Source of the DNA: a virus
Lineage: Duplodnaviria; Heunggongvirae; Uroviricota; Caudoviricetes
DNA length: 18,202 nucleotides
Direction: 5' to 3' (one strand)
IMG/VR virus record: IMGVR_UViG_2617270976_000013
Span: 1-18,202 of that record
Positions 3,464 through 18,202 of this stretch are shown one piece after another. Position 1 is the first letter of the stretch, and every line of letters starts with the position of its first letter. The translations under genes and the position numbers were made by a program. The notes below the pieces were generated by a model. The model worked only from the letters and a program-made list of their open reading frames with translations. It did no database searches and had not been told where the DNA came from.

Positions 3464-3679
3464 TCACCGTTCCTTAAAGACGCCGTTTAACATGCCGATC
3501 ACCAGGCTTAAATGAGTCGGTGTGAATCCCATCAGCGTTACCGTTTCGCGGTGCTTCTTTAGTACGCTACGGCAAATGTCATTGACGTTTTTATCCGGAA
3601 ACTGCTGTCTGGCTTTTTTGATTTCATAATTAGCCTGACGGGCAATGCTGCGAAGGGCGTTATTATGTTCTATTGTCAT
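3464..3679 (-). CDS. hypothetical protein (71 aa), translationally coupled downstream of the 250-aa gene
   Basis: ATG at 3679 with GAGG about 5 nt upstream, 8 nt after the stop of the 250-aa ORF; product MTIEHNNALRSIARQANYEIKKARQ..., no family recognised. The ORF track extends it to 3817 but that overlaps the upstream gene. Confidence 0.5.
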   Translation of the reverse strand: MTIEHNNALRSIARQANYEIKKARQQFPDKNVNDICRSVLKKHRETVTLMGFTPTHLSLVIGMLNGVFKER

Positions 3680-3686
3680 ATTGGCC

Positions 3687-4439
3687 TCACACTTCGAATG
3701 CCAGTTGAGGGGTAAAGACGTCCCGTTCAGCGTTGTAATTAAGTGAACTGGCACTGTTGAATGATTCAATGCGTTCCACAAGAACTTGCGTACGGGTTTC
3801 TTTACTTGCGGGAGCATATGGCGAACCTACCCAGGATTTGTCGATGCCTATATTTCTTGCGACGTTCGTGCTGTCTGCAGACGAAAGCGGTACATGAGTA
3901 AAAATGTCTTTATTTAACATCCGTAACCCATGAATCTTGGTGATTGGGTAGCCGTACTGATCTACAACATGACGTATAAGATCGCGTAGTTTAGCCCGAC
4001 ACGCTCTCGGTCGTTTTGCATCGTATTCCCCCATCGAGCCGATGCAGACGCGGGGAAACTCATGGCACAGACGAATAAATCGCTCATCTGGTTCGTTCAT
4101 GTGCCACACCGGAGCACCAATAAATTTACCGTGAGGCCATGCCGCAATCAGGGCGTCATTCTCTTCACTGGTTCCGCCGATAACATCCGGGATAACCGCG
4201 AATGAGAAACGAGGGTGATTACCCCAGCGTTCAACAAATCTGTAATATTCATTCCAGTCTATGGCCTTGTTTTTTGTCCAGAATGTGAATGCACCATTAT
4301 CAAGAGCAAATGATTGGGTGACTTCGGAAGCCAGATCAATCTGAGCTGGATTAGCAAAACTGATGAATGCGTGTCTGCCTTTCCAGGCTTTCAACGCACA
4401 GGTATCGGGAGTTATTGGACCACCGTGAAAATGAATCAT
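3687..4439 (-). CDS. 250-aa protein with TGT-superfamily (tRNA-guanine transglycosylase-like) motifs; candidate DpdA-type 7-deazaguanine DNA transglycosylase
   Basis: Ordered motifs resembling bacterial Tgt: LDNGAF (46-51) vs TDSGGFQ, AVIPDVIGG (81-89), CIGSMG (132-137) vs VGGL, KDIFTHVP (177-184) vs IDMFDCVMP, TNVARN (191-196) vs TRNARN. No CxCxxC zinc site. The ORF itself is secure; the family call is from a by-eye alignment. Confidence 0.5.
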   Translation of the reverse strand: MIHFHGGPITPDTCALKAWKGRHAFISFANPAQIDLASEVTQSFALDNGAFTFWTKNKAIDWNEYYRFVERWGNHPRFSFAVIPDVIGGTSEENDALIAAWPHGKFIGAPVWHMNEPDERFIRLCHEFPRVCIGSMGEYDAKRPRACRAKLRDLIRHVVDQYGYPITKIHGLRMLNKDIFTHVPLSSADSTNVARNIGIDKSWVGSPYAPASKETRTQVLVERIESFNSASSLNYNAERDVFTPQLAFEV

Positions 4440-8028: not shown

Positions 8029-8259
8029 ATGAACCCAGCTATCAAAACAGCGATCAATATCGTTGGTTCACAAAAGAAACTGGGCGCTGCTTGCGAAGTT
8101 TCACAGCAGGCCGTCTATAAGTGGCTTCACAACAAAGCAAAGGTATCCCCTGAACATGTCGGCAGCATTGTTACGGCTACTGGTGGAGTAGTGAAGGCAT
8201 ACCAGATTCGCCCGGATCTTCCGAAGTTGTTTCCACACACCGAAAAGAACGCAGCTTAA
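8029..8259 (+). CDS. cro: Cro-like HTH regulator (YdaS-like)
   Basis: 76-aa product MNPAIKTAINIVGSQKKLGAACEVSQQAVYKWLHNKAKVSPEH...; SD GGAGG 5 nt upstream; divergent from the repressor across the operator region. Confidence 0.85.
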   Translation: MNPAIKTAINIVGSQKKLGAACEVSQQAVYKWLHNKAKVSPEHVGSIVTATGGVVKAYQIRPDLPKLFPHTEKNAA

Positions 8260-8328: not shown

Positions 8329-8868
8329 ATGCAACCACTTACATACCAACAGACTAGCGGATTTAGCCCGACTGCGGTGATAAATCGTTCTCAAACAAAA
8401 CAGGTGCCAGGCCACGAAAAGATCCGTGATGCCGTCCGCGCCTGGTCGGCTGTAGATAATCAGGATGTCGTTGCCACACTCATTGTGAATGAGTATCGGG
8501 AGCAGGGCGGCGGCACCATCGATTTCCCTGATGATGTCAGCCGTGCACGCCAGAAGCTGTTCCGCTTCCTCGATAACAAATTCGATTCTGAAAAATACCG
8601 AAATAACGTGCGTGAACTGACCCCGGCAATTCTGGCGGTACTACCGCTGGAATATCGCGGTTACCTGGTTGAGCAGGATAGCTTCATGGCTAGGTTGGCT
8701 GAAATGGAAAAGGAACTCAGTGAGGCAAAACAGGCTGTCATTCTCAACGCACCACGCCACCAGAAACTGAAGGAAATTAGTGAAGGTATTGTGTCGATGT
8801 TTCGTGTGGACCCAGATCTGGCTGGTCCATTGATGGCGATGGTTACTACCATGCTGGGGGCGATATGA
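8329..8868 (+). CDS. CII-position regulator, YdaT-family
   Basis: 179-aa product; segment ARQKLFRFLDNKFDSEKYRNNVRELTPAILAVLP resembles Rac YdaT ARNTQKIFRWVEKDTPDAVEKMQALLPAIEKSMP; strong SD AAGGAG; follows cro as cII does in lambda. Confidence 0.7.
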   Translation: MQPLTYQQTSGFSPTAVINRSQTKQVPGHEKIRDAVRAWSAVDNQDVVATLIVNEYREQGGGTIDFPDDVSRARQKLFRFLDNKFDSEKYRNNVRELTPAILAVLPLEYRGYLVEQDSFMARLAEMEKELSEAKQAVILNAPRHQKLKEISEGIVSMFRVDPDLAGPLMAMVTTMLGAI

Positions 8869-8954
8869 CAGGTTCAGAAATGGCGAAAGCCGGTCTGCTG
8901 GAACAGAACCGACTTTCAGGTGCAAACCGTAACACACTCATTGCGGGAGGAATT

Positions 8955-9560
8955 ATGGCAAACACTGCTGAGATATTCAATTTTCCAGTGCCGGATGTGG
9001 CACAAAAGGAGCCGCGCGTGGCAGATCTCGATGATGGTTATACGCGCATTGCAAATGAGTTGCTGGAAGCTGTGATGCTGGCCGGATTAACACAGCACCA
9101 GCTTCTGGTCTTCCTGGCTGTCATGCGCAAAACATATGGCTTTAATAAAAAACTGGATTGGGTGAGCAACGAGCAACTTTCCGAGTTGACCGGGATATTG
9201 CCGCACAAGTGTTCTGCTGCAAAAAGTGTTCTGGTAAAGCGTGGGATTTTTATTCAGAGCGGGCGGAATATCGGCATTAATAATGTGGTCAGTGAATGGT
9301 CAACATTACCCGAATCAGGTAAGAAAAATAAAGTTTACCTGAAAGAGGTAAATTTACCTGAATCAGGTAAGAAAAGTTTACCCAAATCAGGTAAAGACGT
9401 TTACCCGAATCAGGTAAACACAAAAGACAAACTAACAAAAGACAATATAAAACCTTTTTCGTCCGAGAATTTTGGCGAATCCTCTGACCAGCCAGAAAAC
9501 GATCTTCCTGTGGTGAAACCGGATGCTGCAATTCAGAGCGGCAGCAAGTGGGGGATCTGA
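8955..9560 (+). CDS. O: replication initiator, lambda O-like (N-terminal origin-binding domain)
   Basis: 201-aa product; VADLDDGYTRIANELLEA...LAVMRKTYGFNKK matches lambda O (VADLDDGYARLSNMLLEA...LRKTYGWNK); SD GGGAGG upstream of ATG 8955; contains iterons. Shorter than lambda O. Confidence 0.85.
   Translation: MANTAEIFNFPVPDVAQKEPRVADLDDGYTRIANELLEAVMLAGLTQHQLLVFLAVMRKTYGFNKKLDWVSNEQLSELTGILPHKCSAAKSVLVKRGIFIQSGRNIGINNVVSEWSTLPESGKKNKVYLKEVNLPESGKKSLPKSGKDVYPNQVNTKDKLTKDNIKPFSSENFGESSDQPENDLPVVKPDAAIQSGSKWGI
9306..9418. repeat. origin iterons (ori) inside the O gene
   Basis: Four to five copies of about 18 bp TTTACCYRAATCAGGTAA (starts near 9306, 9333 degenerate, 9353, 9377, 9400), each internally palindromic (ACCTGA-a-TCAGGT), followed by an AT-rich stretch (9418-9462). 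Confidence 0.7.
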
Positions 9561-9609
9561 ATGGAGCGTTAATGATGCAGCGGATATCATCAGGTGCCTA
9601 GTACGGGTG

Positions 9610-9861
9610 ATGGAGATCATCAAGCAGGATAGCCAGCAGAAAGAAGGTAATCAGGCATTAATGTTGAAACAGTACTTTGTTAATCTGCTAATAATGGAAC
9701 TGTACGAGGAAGTTCATAACGGTGATGCGGCTGATTCTGTTTTTAAAAGTACGGAACCTACACAAGTACTTGATAACTTATGGAGCAAATGGCAGGAGGC
9801 TATAGCTATTTTTGATATTTGGAATTACCCAGTTGCGACTGAGGAAGACTTGGCAGACTAA
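9610..9861 (+). CDS. hypothetical protein (84 aa) in the position normally occupied by a helicase loader
   Basis: ORF from ATG 9610 (MEIIKQDSQQKEGNQALMLKQYFVNLLIMELYEE...); no similarity to lambda P or DnaC recognised; start uncertain. Confidence 0.4.
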   Translation: MEIIKQDSQQKEGNQALMLKQYFVNLLIMELYEEVHNGDAADSVFKSTEPTQVLDNLWSKWQEAIAIFDIWNYPVATEEDLAD

Positions 9862-10055
9862 TTTTCAGCACATTTGATTTCCAATAATCAACCAGCCATA
9901 ATCATGCCATTGGAGCCTGAACAACTCCGGTGACTTCTGCGCTAAACGGGGACGTTTATGCGCACATACAATCCAACCTATCTTCTCCATTCACAGATGC
10001 AGAAATGCACCTGCGTTTTTTTGCATCCAACGTTTGACCTCTGCGGAGGTGAAGC

Positions 10056-12117: not shown

Positions 12118-13200
12118 TTAGAACTGGTAAACCATACCTACAGCAACGATATCATCGGTAGCAACGCCAGATGCTTTCGTGAAATCGCTCTTATCAATCA
12201 GGTTGATTTTGTAATCAACAAAAGTGGACATATTTTTGTTGAAGTAATAGGTTGCACCTACATCAATATATTCAACCAGGTCCTGATCACCCCACGCACC
12301 CAAGTCTTTTCCTTTAGATTGCAGGTAAGCAACGGACGGACGCAGACCGAAGTCGAACTGATATTGTGCAACTACTTCGAAGTTTTGTGCTTTGTTGGCA
12401 ATATGGTTATTACCAAAAACAGTCATGTTCTGGGTTTCAGAATAGGTGGTAGCCAGATAGATGTTGTTCGCATCATATTTCAGACCAGCTGCCCATACTT
12501 CAGCATTTTGACCAGATGCATTCAGGCTGTTGTTACCGTAGATAACCTGATTATTAGTGCGGTCAGATTTAGCATAGGTTGCACCTACACCGAATCCTTC
12601 ATACTCATAAGTAGTGGAGAAACCGAAACCATCACCATTAGCTTCAGTTACGTCAGTGCGGTCATTTTTACCCTGATACTGAGCAGCAAAGTTCAGACCA
12701 TCAACCAGACCAAAGAAGTCATTGTTACGATAAGTTGCAACACCTGTGGTGCGACCAGTCATGAATACATCTGTTTGGGTCCAGGTATCGCCACCGAATT
12801 CTGGCAGAACGTCGGTCCATGCACCAATATCGTATGCTACACCGTAGTTACGGCCATAATCGATGGAGCCGTAGTCACCGAATTTCAGGCCAGCGAAGGC
12901 AAGACGGGTTTTATCTTTGGAGGAACCTTGAGATTCAGCGCGGTTGCCTTTGAATTCATATTCCCACTGACCGAAACCAGTCAGTTGATCGTTGATTTGG
13001 GTTTCACCTTTGAAGCCAAGACGGGCATAAGTAGTATCACCATCATCTGCATCATTAGAGGAGAAGTAGTGCTTAGCATTAACTTTCCCGTACAGATCCA
13101 GCTTGTTACTGTCTTTATTATAAATTTCAGCTGCCTGAGCAGACATCGCCATCAGTACTGATGCAGTTACAGCAGAAATTGCCACTGTTAATTTTTTCAT
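12118..13200 (-). CDS. OmpC/NmpC-family outer-membrane porin (prophage moron)
   Basis: 360-aa product with signal peptide [23 protein letters not shown], Gly/Tyr/Asn-rich beta-barrel composition and C-terminal F (..VGMVYQF); lies between Q and the lysis genes in opposite orientation, as nmpC does in DLP12. Confidence 0.9.
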
Positions 13201-13626
13201 CGTGAGCCCTTTTTTTGAACTATTATTAAAAAATGATGTCACTGCGCGATAAATATTCATCTAATCAATGTGATTATTTCAAGATGTAAGTTTTGGTTTC
13301 TCATTTGATTTGTGAAGTAGATCTCTATTTTTATCTGAACTTTTTCTATCGAATCCTATTCATGGCTCTTGGCTGAATAAAAATAAATCTATTAGCCAAT
13401 TTATATTAATGGCTGTTATTTATAAGTGCTCTATAATTTGAAGGTTCAATTTAAATCGGCTAAAAATAACGCTGGAAATTATTTGTTGGTTATTTGTTGA
13501 GATTTGCTTATGTATTTGTAGTGGTGTTTTCAATACTCGGTAGCATTCTCGCAAATATCATTTAGTGGTTTACGTACGTAAAAAATTGGTTATGCTGTTA
13601 AGAGTGGTTACTTCGTCACACAGCTT

Positions 13627-15705: not shown

Positions 15706-15808
15706 TACAAAGAATTCATTACTGGGTAGATGAAAATAGTTTCACGATGAATGGAGGAGGCTATGTCGGTGGCTTCTTCATTGGAGTATCCGCGAATGCC
15801 TGCAATGG

Positions 15809-15964
15809 ATGATTGATGACGGCGTGGTGTCCCGTATTGATCTGGATATCCGCCGCACCGGGATTAATGAACTGGGTAACAGTATCACTCTCTGGCGTCG
15901 TGACGGACCGGTAATGATTTCTTTTGATGATCTGTGGAGTGCGATAACGCATGGCGGACAGTGA
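15809..15964 (+). pseudogene. truncated ORF overlapping the J start, possibly the 3' remnant of an upstream baseplate gene
   Basis: Open frame from the stop at 15737 to 15964 encoding ...MIDDGVVSRIDLDIRRTGINELGNSITLWRRDGPVMISFDDLWSAITHGGQ; overlaps J by 14 nt as upstream baseplate genes often do; no SD or N-terminal domain. Confidence 0.3.
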
Positions 15965-16871
15965 ATTTCAGCGCCCGACGCTGGCAGAAAATATCAGTAT
16001 GCTCCGTAACGATTTATTCGCCAGGCTGGACGTCAGCGACACGCTCCGGCGCATGGATGAAGACGTGCGGGCAAAGGTGTATGCGGCGGCGCTGCATACG
16101 GTTTACGGTTACATCGATTATCTGGCAATGAACATGCTGCCTGACCTGTGCGATGAGTCCTGGCTGGCGCGACATGCTGCGATGAAACGGTGTCCGCGCA
16201 AGGGGGCCACGGCTGCCAGCGGGTATATGCGCTGGGAAGGTGTCAGCGATGGCCTGAAGGTGACTGCCGGGAGTGTTATTCAGCGCGATGACCTGGTTCA
16301 GTACACGGCAACTGCCGATGCAACCAGCTCCGGTGGTGTCCTGCGCGTGCCGATCGCCTGCTCAAGTGCAGGCGCGGTCGGTAACGCTGACGACGGTACG
16401 TCATTAATCCTGGTCACGCCGGTGAATGGTCTGCCGTCTTCCGGCGTGGCAGACACTCTGACAGGTGGATTTGATACTGAAGAGCTGGAAACGTGGCGCG
16501 CCCGCGTCATTGAGCGGTATTACTGGACGCCTCAGGGCGGGGCTGACGGGGACTATGTTGTCTGGGCTAAAGAAGTGCCAGGCATTACCCGTGCATGGAC
16601 ATACCGCCACTGGATGGGAACGGGGACTGTCGGTGTGATGATTGCCAGCAGTGACCTGATTAATCCCATTCCGGAAGAATCAACGGAAACGGCGGCAAGA
16701 CAACACATTGAGCCACTGGCCCCGGTGGCAGGCTCTGATTTGTATGTATTCAGGCCGGTGGCGCATAAAGTGGATTTTCATATCCGCGTGACGCCGGACA
16801 CACTGGAAATACGGGCTGCCATCACCGCCGAGTTGCGTTCGTTCCTGCTGCGTGATGGTTATCCGGAGTAA
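15951..16871 (+). CDS. baseplate assembly protein J-like (P2 gpJ family)
   Basis: 306-aa product MADSEFQRPTLAENISMLRNDLFARLDVSDTLRRMDEDVRAKVYAAALHTVYGYIDYLAMNMLPDL... recognised as the P2 J / e14 JayE baseplate family. Confidence 0.8.
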   Translation: MADSEFQRPTLAENISMLRNDLFARLDVSDTLRRMDEDVRAKVYAAALHTVYGYIDYLAMNMLPDLCDESWLARHAAMKRCPRKGATAASGYMRWEGVSDGLKVTAGSVIQRDDLVQYTATADATSSGGVLRVPIACSSAGAVGNADDGTSLILVTPVNGLPSSGVADTLTGGFDTEELETWRARVIERYYWTPQGGADGDYVVWAKEVPGITRAWTYRHWMGTGTVGVMIASSDLINPIPEESTETAARQHIEPLAPVAGSDLYVFRPVAHKVDFHIRVTPDTLEIRAAITAELRSFLLRDGYPE

Positions 16872-17095
16872 TCCATGCATCGTATAGATACGAAAGACAG
16901 CTATTAATTAATCAGGCCAACGAATACATGAACAGTAAACAATGGCCCGGTAAAACCGCTATTGGTCGTCTGAAAGGCGAGGAACTGGCGCAATATAATT
17001 CGTGGCTGGATTATCTGGACGCACTGGAGCTGGTTGATACCTCCAGTGTGCCAGATATTGAATGGCCTACGCCTCCGGCAGTTCAGGCCAGATGA
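16872..17095 (+). pseudogene. tail fibre assembly protein remnant (C-terminal part only)
   Basis: Frame open from the J stop encodes ...ERQLLINQANEYMNSKQWPGKTAIGRLKGEELAQYNSWLDYLDALELVDTSSVPDIEWPTPPAVQAR, the conserved C-terminal region of Tfa chaperones, with no N-terminal domain; converges on and overlaps the complete tfa on the other strand. Confidence 0.5.
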
Positions 17096-17669
17096 CATCA
17101 GGCGCGGTGCTGGTATCAGTTGCCGTCACCGCGTCAATGTAATCCAGCACAGCGTTAAGGCTGGTTGTTTCTGCCTGCGTCAGTTTACGTCCGGCCTGCA
17201 ATTTCAGCTGAATCAGACTGATTGAAGCCATTGCAGTATCAATCAGTGACTGGCGCTGTGCTTCTGCTGCATCTACTGCGGCGCTATGCTGTGCTTCGGT
17301 ATCCGTCACCCATTTCTCACCATCCCATTTATCGTATGGCGTTAACGGGGCGATAGTGGTTGTATTATCAGGGTAATCACCCGGAGCTGTGATTTCTTTT
17401 GACTCTCCCGTTTTGGTGCTATAGACGATTTCACCGCGATGGTCTGGCACATATTCCCATGAGTTAAAATTTGCAGAACGACAGATAGCATAACCCGCCT
17501 TATGTGTGCCAGGGGCATCTAAACAGGAATATGCAGGAATACCGACACCAATGGCAAGATATTCAGTTGATGCTGAAATATATTCCTGCGTCTCACTATC
17601 ATAGTTATAAACGGTAATATCCCCCGACTTTGTAGCAATAAGCTCACTATTTAATATTGCTTTATCCAT
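17067..17669 (-). CDS. tfa: tail fibre assembly protein (Tfa chaperone)
   Basis: 200-aa product ending ...QSLIDTAMASISLIQLKLQAGRKLTQAETTSLNAVLDYIDAVTATDTSTAPDVIWPELPEA, the characteristic Tfa C-terminus; start overlaps the stop of the upstream tail-fibre ORF (TAATG). Confidence 0.85.
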   Translation of the reverse strand: MDKAILNSELIATKSGDITVYNYDSETQEYISASTEYLAIGVGIPAYSCLDAPGTHKAGYAICRSANFNSWEYVPDHRGEIVYSTKTGESKEITAPGDYPDNTTTIAPLTPYDKWDGEKWVTDTEAQHSAAVDAAEAQRQSLIDTAMASISLIQLKLQAGRKLTQAETTSLNAVLDYIDAVTATDTSTAPDVIWPELPEA

Positions 17670-18202
17670 TATGCTGCTCTCACGATATAGTTAAATGCAA
17701 TGTTTCGAGGGCGATTCTCTGATGCTGTTGGTACAACCCTGGATGCATCAAAACTGAATCCTGTGTAAGGGGTATTTTTTGTTTCATATGTGCCTAGGTT
17801 ATTATAGATATTTCGCGTAGCTTGAGATGCTAAGGCAAAAGCACCAGTACCAGTCTGTAACCTGAAAGTTGCTGTATCAATGGTGCCTTTAACTTCATTT
17901 ATAAATCCTGTTATATTCCGAATGGTATCTCCCTGTGACGAAAGCAAGCTACGGTTAGTATCAATCCCTCTTCCATCATCCCAGCCACGAATAAACTCAC
18001 CGCGTAAATCAGGCAATTTATTTGTCGGGTAAACCTTTGCCAGTTCCGGGTATTCTTCAGCAGAAAAAGCCGCCCCGTTGCATTTCAGCCAGCCTGTTGG
18101 CGGAGTGGCGGAAGGCCACGGAACAGGCACGCCAACGGGTAATGCCGAACCTTCTCCCAAACCAACGTTTATGAAAATGCAGAAATAACGAGCAAATGGC
18201 AT
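17669..18202 (-). CDS. tail fibre protein, C-terminal (variable) segment with tail-collar domain
   Basis: 177-aa product containing LPDLRGEFIRGWDDGRGIDTNRSL (tail-collar signature); only 177 aa, so it cannot be a whole fibre; the ATG sits at the last bases of the window. Confidence 0.75.
   Translation of the reverse strand: MPFARYFCIFINVGLGEGSALPVGVPVPWPSATPPTGWLKCNGAAFSAEEYPELAKVYPTNKLPDLRGEFIRGWDDGRGIDTNRSLLSSQGDTIRNITGFINEVKGTIDTATFRLQTGTGAFALASQATRNIYNNLGTYETKNTPYTGFSFDASRVVPTASENRPRNIAFNYIVRAA
18152..18177. other. candidate DNA-invertase crossover site (hix/gix/pix-like)
   Basis: TTCTCCCAAACCAACGTTTATGAAAA: 26 bp, imperfect dyad around an AAACC-AA-CGTTT core; resembles hixL (TTCTTGAAAACCAAGGTTTTTGATAA) recalled from memory; lies within the 5' end of the tail-fibre segment. 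Confidence 0.5.

Follow-up and report, generated by a model that had tools for sequence, protein, structure and literature searches.

The 18,202-nucleotide stretch of DNA analyzed here (the window) very probably carries a complete cis-acting lambda-type replication origin within the deletion-truncated O gene of a lambdoid prophage at thrW, in a replication module that would be unable to initiate by itself. Five copies of the 17-bp near-palindrome TTACCYRAATCAGGTAA are found within window positions 9306-9417 and are followed by an AT-rich region (Table 1). The origin is already known in kind, and the element that carries it is an ordinary cryptic-prophage remnant; the result has little significance beyond correct annotation.

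The host element is integrated at the tRNA-Thr gene thrW, adjoining proA. Its genes are arranged in the order int, exo, bet, gam, kil, cI, cro, a YdaT-like gene, the truncated O gene (O'), the deletion junction and the remnant of a nin-region gene, followed by ybcN, ninE, ybcO, rusA, ylcG, Q, a porin gene, holin, lysozyme, Rz, and bor.

Table 1. Features of the origin region and of the adjoining deletion junction, in window coordinates
Feature	Position	Strand	Sequence or extent	Remarks
Truncated O initiator gene (O')	8955-9560	+	200 native residues, Ile and stop	From translation
Iteron 1	9306-9322		TTACCCGAATCAGGTAA	Additional distal copy; starts 29 bp before iteron 2
Iteron 2	9335-9351		TTACCTGAAAGAGGTAA	Degenerate copy, 2 mismatches; positional equivalent of lambda ITN1 from comparison of spacing
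Iteron 3	9354-9370		TTACCTGAATCAGGTAA	Perfect 8+1+8 palindrome; conserved in Klebsiella phages
Iteron 4	9378-9394		TTACCCAAATCAGGTAA	Conserved in Klebsiella phages
Iteron 5	9401-9417		TTACCCGAATCAGGTAA	Adjoins the AT-rich region; positional equivalent of lambda ITN4
AT-rich region	9418-9460		ACACAAAAGACAAACTAACAAAAGACAATATAAAACCTTTTTC	Directly 3' of iteron 5; A-biased top strand
Imperfect inverted repeat	9461-9488		GTCCGAGAATTT ... GAATCCTCTGAC	Right of the AT-rich region; read from the sequence
Deletion junction	9553-9555		GGA microhomology	From BLAST breakpoints and three-way sequence comparison
3' remnant of nin-region hypothetical gene (169 aa)	9553-9861	+	First 67 codons lost	No Pfam match

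When up to three mismatches are allowed on both strands of the 18.2-kb window, the TTACCYRAATCAGGTAA pattern is matched 10 times, solely at the five iteron sites; as the sites are palindromic, each is matched on both strands. Only 0.13 matches would be expected by chance and none of 200 shuffles reached 10, which confirms the palindromic repeats at the location given for them by the original prediction. Its count of four clear copies and one degenerate copy is likewise correct, with four of the five matching the pattern exactly and the copy at 9335 as the exception. Two of its measurements require correction: the repeat, described as 18 bp long, has a core of 17 bp that is extended to 19-21 bp in copies 4 and 5, and the start-to-start spacing is 29, 19, 24, and 23 bp instead of 23 to 27 bp. 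Each iteron is an 8+1+8 dyad in which 6-8 of the 8 arm positions are symmetric.

The first iteron begins at codon 118, counting from 8955. The iterons had also been proposed to encode a repeated LPESGKK peptide in O; this is true of iterons 1 and 3, which encode it exactly, and approximately of iteron 4 (LPKSGKD), but iterons 2 and 5 are translated in another frame, as VYLKEVN and VYPNQVN. This difference in frame indicates that the repeat is a DNA repeat rather than a peptide repeat. The recurrence of LPESGKK/LPKSGKD in the protein could instead mean that the array is only a peptide motif of the O linker, devoid of function as DNA. We consider this extremely unlikely given that two of the five copies leave the frame, that each copy is dyad-symmetric, that synonymous positions of the origin are far better conserved than those of the N-terminal coding part (discussed below), and that the spacing matches that of the lambda and P22 origins despite the different peptides encoded there.

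The AT-rich stretch predicted to follow the iterons is present. It contains 24 A, 8 T, 2 G, and 9 C (25.6% GC), placing it among the lowest 1.5% of 43-bp windows by GC content, where the whole window averages 47.5% GC. Two ACAAAAGAC motifs form a direct repeat inside it, and the same motif pair is found in P22. In alignment, the region is homologous to the lambda AT-rich region starting at 39119, and it is a putative unwinding region. The inverted repeat to its right aligns with the lambda sequence GTCAGAGAATTCTGGCGAATCCTCTGAC, a palindrome that we take to belong to ori-lambda.

The lambda origin has been defined as four 18-bp iterons with a 38-bp AT-rich stretch, at 39034-39160 (PMC3349717), and every element of this definition has a counterpart in the window. 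In both cases the origin is located in the linker-coding part of O, the iterons are dyad-symmetric and 17-18 bp long, and ACACAAAAGAC directly abuts the last iteron. Iterons 2-5 are spaced 19/24/23 bp, or roughly two helical turns, compared with 20/24/23 bp for lambda ITN1-4; based on this match, which extends to P22, ITN1 corresponds in position to the degenerate copy 2, leaving copy 1 as one further iteron on the distal side. The AT-rich tract and its right flank are homologous in the two (~88% identical): 9418-9555 aligns to lambda sequence that starts at 39119, immediately past ITN4. Against phage 434, identity over 9408-9555 amounts to 88%. The comparison with ori-lambda suggested by the original prediction therefore bears out its central proposal, a lambda-type origin with iterons inside O, which is also supported by the complete PF04492 domain, the 19/24/23 spacing, and the position of ACACAAAAGAC. 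There are also differences from lambda. The iteron sequences are unrelated (TTACCYRAATCAGGTAA in the window versus ATCCCTCAAAACGAGGGA in lambda), the N-terminal domains of O are merely 48.7% identical, the window has five iterons and lambda has four, and the O C-terminal domain and P are deleted in the window.

The closest other type is P22 gene 18. The N-terminal domain encoded in the window is 58.6% identical to that of P22 gp18, and P22 contains four iterons spaced 20/24/23 bp (L007:1252-1366), which share TTACC/GGTAA-like half sites with the window type and are followed, as in the window, by a doubled ACAAAAGACAAT motif. However, the half sites of the P22 iterons are 1-2 bp closer together, and gp18 has a different C-terminal domain, with the DnaB-like gp12 as its partner. 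The Stx phages 933W and P27 likewise have additional iterons on the distal side of the four that adjoin the AT-rich tract, although their six iterons are of the lambda sequence type and include two extra copies where the window has one. Efficient binding in such Stx-phage origins is limited to the four iterons closest to the AT-rich tract (PMC7466680).

The same origin is found in the intact Escherichia phages PhiR26_1, Lambda_4C10, 4A7, Perceval, 1W, and 3W, as well as in the E. coli G1/2 prophage, which occupies the same thrW/proA integration site. The iterons of these relatives are identical to those of the window, a 141-bp origin segment is 97.9-100% identical overall, and the order cI, cro, YdaT-like gene, O is shared, but the relatives encode a full-length O (309/339 aa), P, and ren, where the window has the deletion at 9553-9555. 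Of 5,426 complete E. coli genomes, 2,422 (45%) contain the 141-bp segment, as do 15 records of E. coli phages and 6 of Klebsiella phages. The five TTACCYRAATCAGGTAA copies and the lambda-like AT tract mark the origin of one of the commonest E. coli lambdoid replication types. The iteron is not listed as a feature in the database records examined, and a full-text literature search with its sequence on both strands returned one unrelated primer match and no paper that prints it. The classical phage 82 origin has five repeats; a literature search for this origin returned noise alone, the papers of 1979-1981 being outside its coverage.

The repeats are conserved in related O genes, a point on which the original prediction had made its proposal depend. 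Klebsiella phages ST11-VIM1phi8.2 and KO-TP1 contain the iteron sequence of the window at the same five positions, with the same 29/19/24/23 spacing (L005:1261-1372 and L008:1200-1311). The N-terminal coding sequence of their O genes is 76-79% identical to that of the window, and the segment comprising iterons 3-5 and the AT tract has 91% nucleotide identity. Third codon positions are identical at 29 of 32 sites (91%) in that segment; for the part coding for the N-terminus, the figures are 67/115 and 62/115 (54-58%; Fisher p = 6e-4 and 8e-5). On this comparison, the DNA of the origin, and not the protein alone, is constrained. The distal iterons 1 and 2 are the degenerate ones in the Klebsiella versions, the counterpart of iteron 1 having four mismatches to the pattern; their degeneration fits the Stx-phage finding on the four AT-proximal iterons.

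In SEN34, P22, and lambda, the N-terminal domains are more distant and different iterons occur at the equivalent place. The iterons thus co-vary with the N-terminal domain of the initiator, being the same in the E. coli and Klebsiella relatives and different in SEN34, P22, and lambda. The array in the Klebsiella phages is linked to an O C-terminal domain of unrelated sequence, and the gene that follows O is a different one, with AAA ATPase as its annotation in ST11-VIM1phi8.2; homology to the E. coli type stops right after the AT-rich tract, forming a clean mosaic boundary. These observations indicate that the N-terminal domain and the iterons constitute one specificity module, which ends directly after the AT-rich tract and travels independently of the C-terminal domain and loader.

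RefSeq-style annotation starts O' 90 nt further upstream, at 8865, resulting in a protein of 231 aa. We prefer the ATG at 8955 as the probable true start: the protein read from it aligns with the beginning of lambda O (MANTAEIFNF versus MTNTAKILNF), the codon is preceded by GGGAGG, and, as in lambda, it overlaps a pO-like promoter on the opposite strand. The Pfam domain Phage_rep_O (PF04492) is matched over profile positions 1-95 of 95 (E = 4e-34), corresponding to residues 51-145 of the 231-aa ORF, and the iterons are located in the linker-coding part after this domain. O' aligns to lambda O residues 1-190 and is ~99.7% identical to full-length O genes over 8901-9555. It retains the N-terminal origin-binding domain and the origin-carrying linker but lacks the C-terminal 109 residues. 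Based on homology and conservation, O of this type likely binds the iterons. A search of solved structures with full-length O of this type returned none at E <= 0.01.

The pO-like promoter (8980-8952, - strand) consists of TTGAAT-17-CATAAT with an upstream TG and overlaps the O start codon; it is conserved and aligns with lambda pO. Downstream of it, a hairpin at 8860-8945 on the - strand is a candidate oop-like antisense RNA, but its fold z-score of -1.8 is weak and we therefore do not claim an oop-like RNA. An Rfam scan of the window identified tRNA-Thr alone, with no match where lambda has oop.

In a megablast of 8900-9900, the matches to hundreds of O genes all end at 9555, the nin-region matches begin at 9553, and no phage record spans the join. 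On the left side, window position 9555 corresponds to PhiR26_1 L001:7656, within O; on the right side, 9553 corresponds to L001:12591. The window reads ...GTGGGGGA joined to TCTGAATGG..., while the intact O gene of PhiR26_1 continues CAGCAGAAGACC..., and both sides share the GGA. The junction connects O codon 200 to the middle of the nin-region gene, so that O ends ...SKWG-I-stop, with the stop codon arising 3 nt past the junction. The near-identical O genes of PhiR26_1 and E. coli G1/2 run 109 residues further; these lost residues (TAEDLTAAEWMF...GVDL) correspond to lambda O residues 191-299. Relative to PhiR26_1, 4.9 kb are missing. The right breakpoint is not placeable in E. coli G1/2, in whose prophage the two genes that flank the junction are separated by the remainder of O, P, ren, and several nin ORFs. 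By tblastn, P, ren, and the O C-terminal coding sequence were not found anywhere in the window (all E >= 1), and searches for a helicase loader with lambda P, G1/2 P, and the Klebsiella AAA ATPase as queries gave no window match better than E = 1. The genes next after O' are the nin remnant, ybcN, and ninE.

The join is present in none of the 5,426 complete E. coli genomes. Nor was the exact junction found in species-representative genomes, which says no more than that it is rare. The exact truncated O protein is on record from a single contig (GCA_000704325.1, JNQT01000010.1). The source is a draft assembly, in which a mis-join at a 3-bp junction is formally possible; against this, the junction is situated inside a 128.8-kb contig recorded for two samples. 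The ~99.7% identity of the remnant to intact genes indicates that the deletion is recent and strain-specific, and the element as a whole is a recent, strain-specific, decaying prophage remnant.

An O homologue without a helicase loader is found in 34 of 314 lambdoid phages, phage LLS among them (PMC12315714), and no loader gene follows O in the window. The locus could accordingly be read as a natural module of this type, which would replicate with O only. This reading is hardly credible here: the O gene is of the P-partnered type, ~99% identical up to the break to O genes with P and ren downstream; the break interrupts both O and a nin gene, at a 3-bp microhomology; and the junction is unique to one assembly.

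The original prediction held that both the origin and the initiator are intact, so that the replication module, though reduced, would still work. The claim stands for the cis-acting origin and for the DNA-binding half of O, and fails for the remainder of the initiator, as O is cut at 9553-9555. In its favor, the origin and the Phage_rep_O domain are complete and the ORF runs open to its stop codon without a frameshift. Nevertheless, a working module is highly improbable, since O' lacks the 109 C-terminal residues present in ~99%-identical O genes, its stop occurs 3 nt after a junction that also truncates the downstream gene, and P is absent. In lambda, the N-terminus of O binds DNA and the C-terminus binds P (PMC6022878). 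Amber mutations in lambda O leave fragments of 205 and 294 aa (Table 1 of PMC6022878), both longer than O', which is equivalent to lambda O 1-190; on our reading of these mutants in non-suppressing hosts, the fragments lack O function. A "replication protein O" ORF can be open, match Pfam, contain a perfect origin, and still be non-functional; such ORFs should be checked for truncation against full-length relatives.

By extrapolation from lambda, each of the dyad-symmetric iterons would be bound in the intact relatives by dimers of the O N-terminal domain, with the four beside the AT-rich tract as the main targets; the resulting O-some would stress and open the neighbouring A-rich region, and the O C-terminal domain would recruit P-DnaB for helicase loading. 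In the window, the O C-terminal domain, P, ren, and several nin genes were lost through a microhomology-mediated deletion at 9553-9555, and a second deletion took the head genes and most of the tail genes. The origin sequence has survived, and its iterons do not differ from those of sequenced phages. The cis site is likely competent, whereas O' would at most bind the iterons. With the C-terminal domain and P missing, initiation would be expected only if full-length O and P came from a co-resident phage of the same type; since such proteins could fire the origin in trans, it is the module, and not necessarily the DNA site, that is dead.

It is conceivable that the iterons, a DNA-binding-only O', and the pO/oop-like unit have been kept as an origin decoy or dominant-negative initiator against phages of the same type. 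Ectopic copies of ori-lambda block lambda replication (PMC4488673), and plasmid-borne oop with ITN3-4 silences rep-lambda phages (PMC3349717). The pO-like promoter at 8980-8952 (- strand) is conserved, and the origin type is so common in E. coli that encounters with same-type phages are likely. However, the published effects came from plasmid-borne origin copies, and the window represents a single chromosomal copy. In addition, O', being downstream of pR, would be subject to the resident repressor, a deletion confined to a single strain gives no sign of selection, nothing observed in the window speaks for such a role, and neutral decay explains the data fully. Retention as a defense is therefore very unlikely, and we favor decay of the prophage. 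It is very unlikely, too, that the remnant interferes with incoming same-origin phages by titrating or poisoning the O-some, or that a co-resident prophage fires it in trans and so amplifies the neighbouring chromosome.

The second deletion is located at 15787/15788 (context 15717-16864), where ~15.6 kb are missing relative to the E. coli G1/2 prophage. The fusion is between the gp46/baseplate-J region and the sequence that immediately precedes the HNH endonuclease and terminase genes; the terminase, portal, protease, capsid, sheath, tube, tape measure, and baseplate V genes are among those lost. The prophage is defective for both replication and morphogenesis.

Several further features were noted elsewhere in the window. 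The cro position (8029-8259) encodes a YdaS-like protein and the cII position (8329-8868) a 179-aa protein with a YdaT_toxin domain; this pair, in place of lambda-like Cro/CII, also occurs in PhiR26_1, where the genes are annotated cro and cII. In the early-left region, 3662-4436 is a mosaic substitution that replaces orf61/orf63 of G1/2 and PhiR26_1, and its ORF (3687-4439, - strand) encodes 250 aa with no Pfam match. The porin gene (12118-13260, - strand) separates the Q antiterminator gene from the lysis cassette, where lambdoid morons are usually located; as called, it encodes 360 aa with Porin_1 and Porin_4 domains, and its relatives are annotated as OmpC. At the end of the window (16904-18202), tail-fibre-related genes with Caudo_TAP and Collar domains occur on the - strand after the + strand baseplate-J gene. 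Their counterpart in G1/2 adjoins a pinE-type invertase gene, and the segment may be an invertible tail-fibre segment in the other orientation.
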